Assembly: GCA_963662285.2 (NCBI GenBank)
Contig: CAXXMV010000006.1
Location: 608,001 to 672,000, forward strand
DNA length: 64,000 bases
Direction: 5' to 3'
DNA from: a bacterium
Lineage (GTDB): Bacteria; Hinthialibacterota; Hinthialibacteria; Hinthialibacterales; Hinthialibacteraceae
Below the pieces are notes generated by a model. The model did no database searches. It was not told where the DNA came from and worked only from the letters and a program-made list of their open reading frames with translations. The position numbers and the translations under genes are program-made. Shown here piece by piece: positions 45,945 to 47,572 of the stretch (position 1 is its first letter; each line of letters begins with the position of its first letter).

Positions 45945-46099
45945 ATACCGCGAGTAATATATCCCGCTTATAAATGTCAAGCAACCAAGTCCCCTCTCCC
46001 CGCGGGAGTGTAAAGGCCTGGGACATGGGTAACAGGTGTTCGGGGACATAGGTAACACATTTTCTGAGTGTATTCTAGCCTTGAAAGGAGGCGAAGAAT

Positions 46100-47266
46100 A
46101 TGCCCTGGAACGAGGTGGACCTTATGTCTCTGAGAAAAGAATTCGTATTGTTGAGCCAGCAAGAAGAAAGCAACATCAGCCAATTATGTAAACGGTTTGA
46201 TATCAGCCGTAAGACGGGTTACAAATGGATCAAACGGTACAAAGAAGGAGGAGTCGAAAATCTCCAAGACCGTTCCAAAAAACCCAATACTTGCCCTCAT
46301 CAAACAGATAAGTCTATCGAGCAAGCCATTACAGAAAATCGCGAAAAAGGATGGGGAGGACGCAAAATTCGCTCTCGTCTGATTCAATTGGGATACGAAA
46401 ATGTTCCTAGCGCCAGCACTATTACTGCCGTGTTACGCCGACTGGGATTGCTGGATGAAAAGGAAAGTCACAAGCACAAAGCCTATAAGCGTTTTGAAAA
46501 AGATACGCCCAACGAATTGTGGCAAATGGATTTCAAAGGAGATTTTCCCACGCTCAAAGCACGCTGTTATCCGCTCAGCATTCTGGATGATTGCACGCGC
46601 TTTGTTCCCGGATTATTTTCGTGCGCCAATCAGCAAAGGGAAACCGTGCAAGACTCCCTGGAAAGCGTGTTCAGGATGTATGGTATGCCTCGGGCGATGT
46701 TGATGGATAACGGAAGTCCGTGGGGAGGATGCAAAACCTGCGAATACACCAGATTGACAATATGGCTGATACGATTGGGTATTCGCGTGTATCACGGTCG
46801 CCCCTACCATCCGCAAACCCAAGGCAAGGTCGAGCGATTTCACCGGACCTTTAAGCAAGAATTGCTGATAAGGGAATCGTTTGTGGATTTGGAATATTGC
46901 CAAAGGCGGTTTGATGAGTGGCGTTATGAATACAATTTTGAGCGTCCTCACGAAGCCCTGGATATGGATGTCCCGGCTAACCATTATACGTCCAGTCCTT
47001 TTGTTTATCCGGGAAGTTTGCCGGATATCGAGTACGCGCCGGGCAGCATTATCAGGAAGGTGCAACAAGGAGGTCGGGTGGCGTACCGTGGTGAAGATTA
47101 CCGGGTGAGCCGCGCCCTGGTAGGATGCCCGGTTGCCTTGAAACCCGCTATGACCGATGGGATGATGGACGTATATTTTTGCCGACAAAAAATCAAGACG
47201 CTCGATCTGCGTTTGAATGAAATCAAAGAAGATAACTTGGCAATCCAGAAAAAGGCGTCACAATAG
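46100..47266 (+). CDS. IS481-family transposase (rve integrase core)
   Basis: MPW start, ISRKTGYKW HTH, PNELWQMDFKG, DDCTR, DNGSPW, HPQTQGKVERFH, YNFERPH. Confidence 0.95.
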   Translation: MPWNEVDLMSLRKEFVLLSQQEESNISQLCKRFDISRKTGYKWIKRYKEGGVENLQDRSKKPNTCPHQTDKSIEQAITENREKGWGGRKIRSRLIQLGYENVPSASTITAVLRRLGLLDEKESHKHKAYKRFEKDTPNELWQMDFKGDFPTLKARCYPLSILDDCTRFVPGLFSCANQQRETVQDSLESVFRMYGMPRAMLMDNGSPWGGCKTCEYTRLTIWLIRLGIRVYHGRPYHPQTQGKVERFHRTFKQELLIRESFVDLEYCQRRFDEWRYEYNFERPHEALDMDVPANHYTSSPFVYPGSLPDIEYAPGSIIRKVQQGGRVAYRGEDYRVSRALVGCPVALKPAMTDGMMDVYFCRQKIKTLDLRLNEIKEDNLAIQKKASQ

Positions 47267-47267
47267 A

Positions 47268-47391
47268 AATTGGTTGGGCGAAACGGAAGCGGGCGCTGCA
47301 GGAGTGCAACCCGCCAGGGATAGCCGATCCGAGGTGCGAGGGATAATGCAGGAGGTGAAATATTCACCTCCTCCCTCTAAGCCAACCAATT
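47268..47391. ncRNA. Candidate structured RNA in the IS481 3' non-coding region
   Basis: Perfect 10-bp closing stem AATTGGTTGG/CCAACCAATT enclosing two hairpins; not assigned to any family. Confidence 0.5.
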
Positions 47392-47572
47392 ATCCTGAGC
47401 ATCTCTAGATGCCTAAAAAAAAACTCAAACAATAACCTGGGATAAATCCCGGTTTTGATAAAAAACTGTAACCCATGTCCCCGAACATGTGTTACCCATC
47501 TACCCGGTCTGTACAGGGAGAGGGTCAGGGTGAGGGGGGAATCTCCCAACACCCTAACTAATCAATCATCTA

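Follow-up and report, generated by a model that had tools for sequence, protein, structure and literature searches.

Bridge RNAs and omega RNAs encoded by insertion sequences (IS) have recently been shown to be working parts of transposition, and they are useful tools. The large families of DDE (retroviral-integrase-type) elements, IS3, IS481, IS21 and IS256, are to our knowledge thought to work with protein alone. A locus in a 64,000-nucleotide stretch of contig CAXXMV010000006.1, from a bacterium of the phylum Hinthialibacterota, bears on this point. In this stretch (the window, to which positions refer unless a contig is named), an IS481-family element, designated ISA, carries strongly self-complementary non-coding DNA between its transposase gene and its right end. 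Does this DNA encode an RNA, and, if so, what would the RNA act upon? The comparative analysis described here supports the first-pass annotation of the locus in that the region encodes a conserved structured RNA linked to insertion sequences, for which there is strong covariation and no explanation in Rfam. It does not bear out the proposal of an IS481-associated RNA: the 80 nearest homologues of the ISA transposase (38-55% identity) all lack the core of the RNA at E<=1, and the RNA also lies beside IS3, IS21, IS256 and IS110 genes. The finding is broader than was first supposed, and concerns a widespread family of IS-borne structured RNAs, here called class A, that occurs with several IS families.

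A covarying RNA family absent from Rfam

A sensitive blastn search of G000, the genome of the window (7.29 Mb, 8 contigs), with the ISA non-coding region recovered the 18 near-identical copies of ISA and, in addition, seven other places (78-86% identity). The seven extra places match positions 11-60 of the non-coding region only (window 47277-47326). They show compensatory changes in the stems and have a second box in common, ATGCCT-A-run-CTC, about 100 nt downstream. Two covariance models describe the family: R1, which covers the core in 67 positions, and R2, which covers the full length in 166 positions. R2 matches all 82 sources searched, and the window copy aligns over the whole of the model with a score inside the family range (Table 1).

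As modeled, the class A RNA is approximately 165 nt long, and its core domain is followed by a long hairpin with interruptions and by a tail that stays single-stranded. The core comprises, in order, helix P1, the junction GAAACGGA, helix P2, helix P3 with its invariant GGAG tetraloop, and A(A)GGGAUA. The hairpin is built from P4a, P4b and a variable apical P5, and is followed by the unpaired tail AUGCCU-A-run-CUC, or AUGCCUnAAAAAACUC. An initial model of P3 as CUCU/AGAG left 13 of 31 cells unpaired at one pair, and was replaced by UGCN/NGCA closing the GGAG loop.

Covariation supports this architecture both for the core and for the full length. RNAalifold, applied to an independent MAFFT alignment of 10 sequences, predicts P1 to P5 with compensatory changes in 14 of 37 pairs. 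Among the 82 sequences aligned to R2, 91.5% of the paired cells can pair, compared with 65.3% after shuffling, and both partners vary in 35 of the 37 pairs. This alignment has a covariation score of 0.525, against 0.148 for shuffled alignments (0 of 500 reach it) and 0.035-0.086 for slid controls. For the core alone (R1, 32 matches), the paired cells amount to 89.5% versus 75.5% when shuffled, and the score is 0.450 versus 0.197, with 0 of 500 shuffles reaching it and slid controls at 0.054-0.095. The innermost pair of P3 illustrates the pattern, being UA in 61 sequences, GC in 11, CG in 5 and AU in 2. Thus the helices covary, and the unpaired nucleotides are almost invariant across phyla. Since G-U pairs are common on the modeled strand, the strand of the RNA is fixed.

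Two further properties of the hairpin domain (domain 2) were noted. Its 5' half, inspected by eye, is self-complementary and also complementary to the 3' half. Furthermore, 12 of the 55 family members with a scorable P5 (alignment A6) carry a U-rich tract after P5, which reads as a candidate internal terminator-like signal in mid-RNA; ISA has no such tract.

Known RNA families do not account for these observations. With permissive E-values, the 4227 models of Rfam 15 gave no relevant match, whether in the window region or in the 34 related loci scanned, so that no Rfam family explains the structure. The best match in the window region scored 18.7 bits against a gathering score of 53, and lay on the opposite strand. 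The HEARO and IS605-orfB models, likewise, matched neither the class A region nor the loci. No description of the RNA was found in the literature searched, whose scope did not extend to supplements; a preprint (10.64898/2026.09.22.753630) makes, in the part available, just a general remark on structure near transposases. Class A is therefore an RNA family that is new relative to Rfam 15 and to the literature searched.

The copy carried by ISA

All of the stems named in the first-pass annotation are present in the sequence. They include a 10-bp stem with arms AATTGGTTGG (47268-77) and CCAACCAATT (47382-91), a GCGGG (47289-93)/CCCGC (47310-14) hairpin that surrounds TGCA (47297-300), GGAG (47301-04) and TGCA (47305-08), and a perfect apical hairpin formed by AGGAGGTGAA (47350-59), ATA and TTCACCTCCT (47363-72). 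Two smaller hairpins follow, GCATC-TCTA-GATGC at 47399-412 and one at 47437-52 that is succeeded by TTTT. The strong self-complementarity of the region was also confirmed by folding: the plus strand of 47260-47500 (241 nt) folds at -80 kcal/mol with a z-score of -4.41, and none of 200 shuffles is as good, while the minus strand folds at -86.2 kcal/mol with a z-score of -3.56.

The comparative data assign these elements to different categories. The GCGGG/CCCGC hairpin with its inner TGCA-GGAG-TGCA and the apical hairpin are family features, corresponding to P2/P3 and P5, respectively. The 10-bp outer stem, although it exists, is peculiar to ISA; its 5' arm occupies the position at which relatives have the 5' strand of P1, and its 3' arm takes 3 nt of the family helix P4b. 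Similarly, the hairpin at 47399-412 is present but competes with the family helix P4a. The helix proposed between CGGA and TCCG is not conserved, and CGGA instead forms part of the invariant junction GAAACGGA. The last hairpin, placed by the first-pass annotation within 47434-54, is found at 47437-52 and has a terminator-like score, yet terminator-like sites in this region are not above the number in shuffled sequence.

The window copy retains every invariant motif of class A, and of P1 only the 3 bp GGC/GCC are left. The predicted minimum free energy (MFE) fold includes the ISA-specific stem, at -61.2 kcal/mol; when the arm is blocked, a family-like fold is predicted at -55.4 kcal/mol. Upstream, a promoter-like site, TTGGCA-16-CACAAT, stops 6 nt short of the RNA; in relatives, TTGAC-N17-TAnnnT is found equally far upstream.

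The nearest full-length relative of the ISA RNA, at locus L037, comes from the same bacterial family and is 69% identical over 151 nt. It has nearly the same apical hairpin (a homologous P5), plus CCAATCCAATTATTC, and it does not lie in any IS481 element. A search of 60 related genomes for close relatives of ISA, meant to reveal an RNA-less progenitor, returned none, the best match being 45% identical and in one genome. As part of a reading that is given slightly better than even weight overall, the 3' non-coding region of ISA would be a captured and remodeled copy of a class A RNA gene. ISA would have taken up an RNA of the lineage that normally resides in the right ends of an IS3 clade (described below), at the cost of the 5' strand of P1 and the original promoter, and would have gained its own 10-bp clamp, which competes with P4b.

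Table 1. Positions of ISA, its RNA and associated features in the window, and carriers of the related class B motif
Feature	Position	Strand	Basis
Insertion sequence ISA, IS481 family	46009..47515	+	Copies, ends, flanks; NF033577; variable sites
Transposase gene, 388 aa	46100..47266	+	Open reading frame; rve, rve_3, HTH domains, LZ_Tnp_IS481; IS481 equivalog
Target duplication GGGAG, 5 bp	left 46004..46008, right 47516-47520	.	Sequence reading and copy flanks
RNA, full-length match to R2 positions 1-166	47270..47429	+	86.9 bits, E 1.6e-22
5' arm of ISA-only 10-bp stem, pairs with 47382-91	47268..47277	+	Sequence, L037 comparison, folds
P1 remnant GGC/GCC, flanking core	47277-79 / 47323-25	+	Family alignments
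Junction J1/2, GAAACGGA, nearly invariant in family	47280..47287	+	Family alignments
P2, GCGGG/CCCGC	47289-93 / 47310-14 (within 47289..47314)	+	Alifold, covariation
P3, UGCA/UGCA, inside P2, GGAG tetraloop 47301-04	47297-300 / 47305-08	+	Alifold, covariation
Junction J2/1, AGGGAUA, nearly invariant	47316..47322	+	Family alignments
Domain 2	47331..47405	+	Fold of ISA copy; family helices covary
P4a, GAGGUGC/GCAUCUC	47331-37 / 47399-405	+	Fold of ISA copy
P4b, GGGAUAAU/AUUAUCCU	47340-47 / 47389-96	+	Fold of ISA copy
Apical P5, AGGAGGUGAA/UUCACCUCCU	47350-59 / 47363-72	+	Fold of ISA copy
Unpaired 3' tail AUGCCU-A9-CUC, family consensus AUGCCUnAAAAAACUC	47409..47426	+	Family alignments
Promoter-like TTGGCA-16-CACAAT, in last transposase codons	47237..47264	+	Consensus match; 3 sites versus 2.2 in shuffles
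Terminator-like hairpin CTGGGA-TAAA-TCCCGG, then TTTTGAT	47437..47459	+	1 site versus 2.3 expected in shuffles
Class B carriers L273, L275, L278, L288, L292, L294, L296, L299, L300, L302, L312, L320, L324, L325, L327	3' of orfB

Distribution and genomic contexts

R1 has 25 matches in G000, made up of the 18 ISA copies, five copies of a second element (ISB), one locus beside the istB gene of an IS21 element and one at C8:756. Beyond this genome, matches to R1 occur in 20 of 101 related genomes and, within the phylum, in 17 of 35 genomes. A search for an exact 31-nt core pattern matched at least 95 stretches of a genome contig collection. Among the matches listed, the record titles name about a dozen phylum-level groups, including Acidobacteriota, Bacteroidota, Planctomycetota, Verrucomicrobiota, Cloacimonadota, Hydrogenedentota, Nitrospirota, Armatimonadota, Sumerlaeota, delta-proteobacterial groups, Oligosphaera ethanolica and others. 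Oligosphaera ethanolica DSM 24202, a cultured carrier, has two of the loci (L071 and L116). The same exact pattern had no match in viral contigs, and blastn with a type-1 copy had none in the PLSDB plasmids.

The neighborhood of the RNA was characterized at 71 distinct loci by scoring the nearest open reading frames (ORFs; 121 in all) against Pfam. A transposase-type neighbor is present at 31 of the 71 loci, and the neighbors comprise 23 with an rve domain, three IstB, three IS110, one ISL3, one DUF4372 and one reverse transcriptase. In all 23 rve cases the RNA lies at the 3' end of the gene, on the same strand in nine, where it begins 2-57 nt past the stop codon, and convergent with the gene in 14. 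Five further neighbors from Bacteroidota, missed by Pfam, are IS256-family transposases, and the RNA is again convergent. The RNA is found on the 3' side of IS3, IS481, IS21, IS256 and IS110 transposase genes, in either orientation. In the multi-copy elements examined (ISA, ISB and an IS3 element of genome G007), the repeated unit includes the RNA gene, which follows the transposase stop codon and precedes the right inverted repeat. Most class A copies have a promoter-like site directly upstream, of the type TTGAC-N17-TAnnnT or resembling Bacteroidota-type motifs.

ISB is a second IS481-like element of about 1.83 kb with five copies (the L032 region at C6:135485-138184, and others on C6, C1 (two) and C2). 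Its transposase frame has an in-frame TAA after residue 325, followed by about 75 more codons. The RNA is located in the 3' non-coding region of ISB, on the strand opposite the transposase, and is followed by a GC hairpin. At the IS21 locus the RNA abuts the istB stop codon and is convergent with the gene. The C8:756 copy, which scores 71.4 bits on R2, has a TTGACA-type promoter upstream. In the region around it (C8:754000-759000, L033), the RNA and a right-repeat remnant are flanked by two ORFs. One, of 362 aa, is encoded on the same strand; the other is long, runs on the opposite strand, and shows a Cys-rich motif at its N terminus and a segment resembling a P-loop.

RNA motifs at the right ends of an IS3 clade

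One clade of the IS3 family often carries class A. In its members, orfA is followed by a slippery site formed by an A-run and then by orfB, and the score on the IS3 model is 169 bits. Of the 80 IS3-clade loci, 27 have a class A RNA in the interval from orfB to the right repeat, in every case on the transposase strand. In 15 more of the 80, the same slot is occupied by a second conserved and structured motif, apparently related and here called class B (Table 1), such that about half of the members (42 of 80) carry class A or class B at this position. Class B consists, in order, of P1, CGGAGGAUA, P2/P3, GAGCGCCGA and then GGCCAAGACCG. It was recognized through 17 regular-expression matches, two of which look spurious, and it has no match in Rfam.

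Other members of the clade have a short spacer or a putative zinc-ribbon ORF in the slot. Four of them (L309, L333, L334 and L337) have an insert of 470-530 nt between orfB and the right repeat, part of which, translated by eye, reads like a Cys-rich, zinc-ribbon-type peptide. In the printed IS3-clade members, the hairpin after the RNA tail is without a U-tract. One IS3-clade element (L274:480-500) lies inside sequence similar to the right inverted repeat of a second IS3-clade element, which suggests insertion next to inverted-repeat-like sequences.

A box found downstream of free-standing RNA copies was at one point taken for a conserved part of the RNA locus. It is the right inverted repeat of the IS3 clade, and 14 of 90 distinct RNA loci have it. 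The free-standing copies, including that at C8:756, therefore read as remnants of IS3-clade right ends.

The host element and its insertion sites

ISA is 1507 bp long and has the ends TGTAAAGG...TGTACA, as judged from sequence reading and comparison of copies. Its right end had been placed near 47467, and the comparison moves the actual limit to 47515. The transposase gene, which stops with TAG at 47264-66, is a single ORF of 388 aa without a frameshift. Its product scores 268 bits on the IS481 model NF033577 (cut-off 224), and contains the Pfam domains rve, rve_3 and LZ_Tnp_IS481 as well as HTH domains. Together with the terminal inverted repeats TGTAAAGGCC.../...GGTCTGTACA and the 5-bp target duplications, these features place ISA in the IS481 family, for which short duplications in this range are usual. 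The 18 copies in G000 differ at seven variable sites, one of which is in the non-coding region. At C1:606229-609516 of that genome, an ISA copy without its first 20 bp or so directly adjoins an ISB copy at the latter's left end, a case of nested or truncated insertion.

ISA shows target specificity of the kind directed at repetitive extragenic palindromic (REP) sequences. Its targets are short palindromes of the form CCCTCTCCC-(3-7 nt)-GGGAGAGGG, entered at a fixed place, namely the edge between the loop and the right arm, with a 5-bp duplication (window 45991-46008 and 47516-47540; copies in G000). The palindromic flanks and the duplication were judged by eye, and are seen in most of the 18 copies.

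Possible roles of the RNA

Somewhat better than an even chance is given to the reading in which class A is a separately transcribed, trans-acting passenger RNA, that is, a self-contained small-RNA gene carried by insertion sequences. The RNA occurs in both orientations relative to the transposase gene, has its own promoter-like site, and keeps its unpaired nucleotides invariant despite changing transposases; these features argue for a separate RNA acting in trans, whose partner is not the transposase. Such a transcript would act through its invariant unpaired parts, and its partner would be independent of the transposase family, perhaps a conserved host factor or nucleic acid. The 3' side may be the sole place where an insertion sequence tolerates extra DNA, and, if it is, the constant 3' position of the RNA is to be expected. 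Ideas that the RNA may serve as a CsrA or Hfq sponge or as a mimic of a ribosome-binding site derive from its GGA and A-rich motifs alone.

Several observations weigh against this reading. The transcription, the ends and the strand of the RNA are deduced from sequence, and the promoter-like and terminator-like sites of ISA are not commoner than in shuffled sequence. The locus sets are biased, having been found via a near-invariant pattern or a single transposase, and alignments A3 and A6 were fitted to the models. The 18 ISA copies hold too few variants to judge selection on the RNA. Moreover, all 27 class A RNAs of the IS3 clade read towards the right end, where two related classes persist, and this co-orientation fits an IS-specific role in cis better than that of a mere passenger. 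Finally, ISA has no proper P1 and its most stable fold in silico uses the ISA-specific stem, so this particular copy could be impaired.

A further proposal is that class A and class B are functional RNA partners of DDE elements, native to the IS3 clade and later borrowed by IS481, IS21, IS256 and IS110, which control or assist transposition, for example via the circular intermediate or a host factor needed by copy-out-paste-in elements. This is possible, although it is held only tentatively and at well below even weight. The main rival to the passenger reading would make the RNA an integral, cis-acting part of the element: an outward-reading leader with an aptamer-like core and a switchable hairpin, situated ahead of a transposase gene. 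These IS families move via circular intermediates with junction promoters, and a leader at the right end would determine whether transcription passes the right repeat and enters flanking genes or, in a circular or tandem intermediate, the transposase gene. The IS3-clade arrangement agrees well with this, since in 27 of 27 cases the RNA reads in the same direction as the transposase gene and directly precedes the right repeat, the hairpin after its tail has no U-tract in the printed members, and 42 of 80 members keep class A or class B at this spot; ISA is co-directional as well. The self-complementarity of domain 2 seen by eye would allow alternative folds. A riboswitch or attenuator would combine a conserved aptamer with an expression platform ahead of a coherent set of regulated genes; here the core is conserved and alternative pairings are possible, a U-tract follows P5 in 12 of 55 sequences, and the genes downstream are heterogeneous. 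However, the RNA is convergent with the transposase gene in 14 of the 23 rve-linked loci and in the IS256, IS21 and ISB cases, and therefore cannot be a leader there. In ISA, furthermore, a terminator-like hairpin stands between the RNA and the right repeat, and neither a ligand nor a regulated ORF is evident. A leader role is considered unlikely. Lower still is the probability assigned to the possibility that the family is real while the ISA copy is an inert, 5'-truncated fragment, recently captured and no longer working. In its favor, ISA is missing the 5' strand of P1 beyond GGC/GCC and the original promoter, its predicted MFE fold takes 3 nt from P4b for the ISA-specific stem, and its copies are too alike to show constraint; that 0 of 80 transposase relatives carry the RNA does imply a recent gain. 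Yet GAAACGGA, GGAG, AGGGAUA and the AUGCCU-A-run-CUC tail are all intact, the R2 score of 86.9 bits is within the family range and above the 71.4 bits of the C8:756 copy, and a perfect 10-bp clamp in the place of P1 looks like replacement rather than decay.

Two further proposals concern mobility and target choice. The RNA module could itself be a selfish hyperparasite that moves into the 3' ends of insertion sequences, for instance via an RNA intermediate, and is spread by them. A compact unit of promoter and RNA, approximately 215-300 nt long, does occur in at least five IS families and in both orientations; it has an A-rich tail, a reverse transcriptase adjoins one locus (L075), and a 297-nt unit is common to two species of one genus in which the flanks differ. 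This last unit, however, stops exactly at the IS3 right-repeat box and so looks like a remnant of an IS; inspection by eye revealed neither terminal repeats nor target duplications of the module, and the reverse transcriptase is one of 121 neighboring ORFs; the proposal is improbable. Least credible, and close to negligible, is a role of the RNA in guiding or helping the choice of insertion site, as in bridge and omega RNAs, with REP-like palindromes as the sites of ISA. This had been raised by the first-pass annotation, and it draws on the very specific insertion of ISA at CCCTCTCCC...GGGAGAGGG palindromes and on CCUCCUCCCUCU (47366-77) in its RNA, which has 6 nt in common with the target arm. 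In a comparison confined to eight IS3 elements, the longest complementarity between RNA and target averaged 7.1 nt for cognate and 6.1 nt (sd 1.0) for non-cognate pairs. Of the three longest cognate matches examined, those of 11 and 7 nt fall outside the RNA, between its tail and the right repeat, the former because that element sits in the repeat of another element, and one of 8 nt (L282) falls on the 3' arm of P5. The purine-rich P5 of ISA is nearly the same in L037, outside any IS481 element, and its resemblance to the REP target is thus inherited rather than tailored. In addition, IS families whose ends and targets differ widely carry almost the same core and tail. The reading as a trans-acting passenger RNA retains preference, at the modest confidence stated above.

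Relation to known IS-encoded RNAs

The insertion behavior of ISA resembles that of the REP-targeting elements IS1397, ISKpn1 and examples from the IS110 family, all of which enter short GC-rich palindromes at a fixed site. This likeness concerns the element, an IS481-family member, and not its RNA.

For the RNA, the antisense regulators IS10 RNA-OUT, IS200 art200 and 5'tnpA are similar in being small and IS-encoded, and some of them are convergent with or antisense to the transposase transcript. The antisense RNAs of IS10 and IS200 are element-specific and target the mRNA of their own transposase at its 5' end or ribosome-binding site, whereas class A lies at the 3' end, in both orientations, and is nearly unchanged among unrelated IS families. 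The orphan motifs of Rfam known as Transposase-resistance, Acido-Lenti-1 and ROOL/GOLLD are likewise conserved structured RNAs on mobile DNA that were recognized by comparative analysis, but none of the 4227 models of Rfam 15 matches class A. The omega RNAs, or reRNAs, of IS200/IS605 elements (TnpB, IscB) resemble class A in being encoded 3' of a transposon gene and close to the right end. However, the 121 neighboring ORFs include no TnpB or IscB domain, and the class A RNA ends well inside the element, about 85 nt short of the right end in ISA and tens of nucleotides short in the IS3 clade; therefore, unlike in omega RNAs, no flanking guide can be attached.

There is also a resemblance to the bridge (seek) RNAs of IS110/IS1111, which are also structured RNAs of 150-250 nt in a non-coding IS end and are conserved with it. 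According to the abstracts of the studies concerned, bridge RNAs work with DEDD (IS110-type) recombinases and have two loops that pair with target and donor. The main partners of class A are, in contrast, DDE transposases (rve of IS3, IS481 and IS21; IS256), as is that of ISA (rve/IS481), and an IS110-type neighbor is found at 3 of 71 loci; its conserved unpaired parts are invariant rather than programmable. Class A is a strongly covarying RNA with unpaired nucleotides that are near invariant over about a dozen phyla, held in the same slot of several IS families. Even as mere cargo, it would clearly exemplify the spread of a small-RNA gene from phylum to phylum by insertion sequences. An action on transposition or on a conserved host factor would raise a testable question on the control of very common elements, and, should class A and class B prove to be partners of DDE elements, they would represent a third kind of IS-encoded RNA beside the bridge and omega RNAs.

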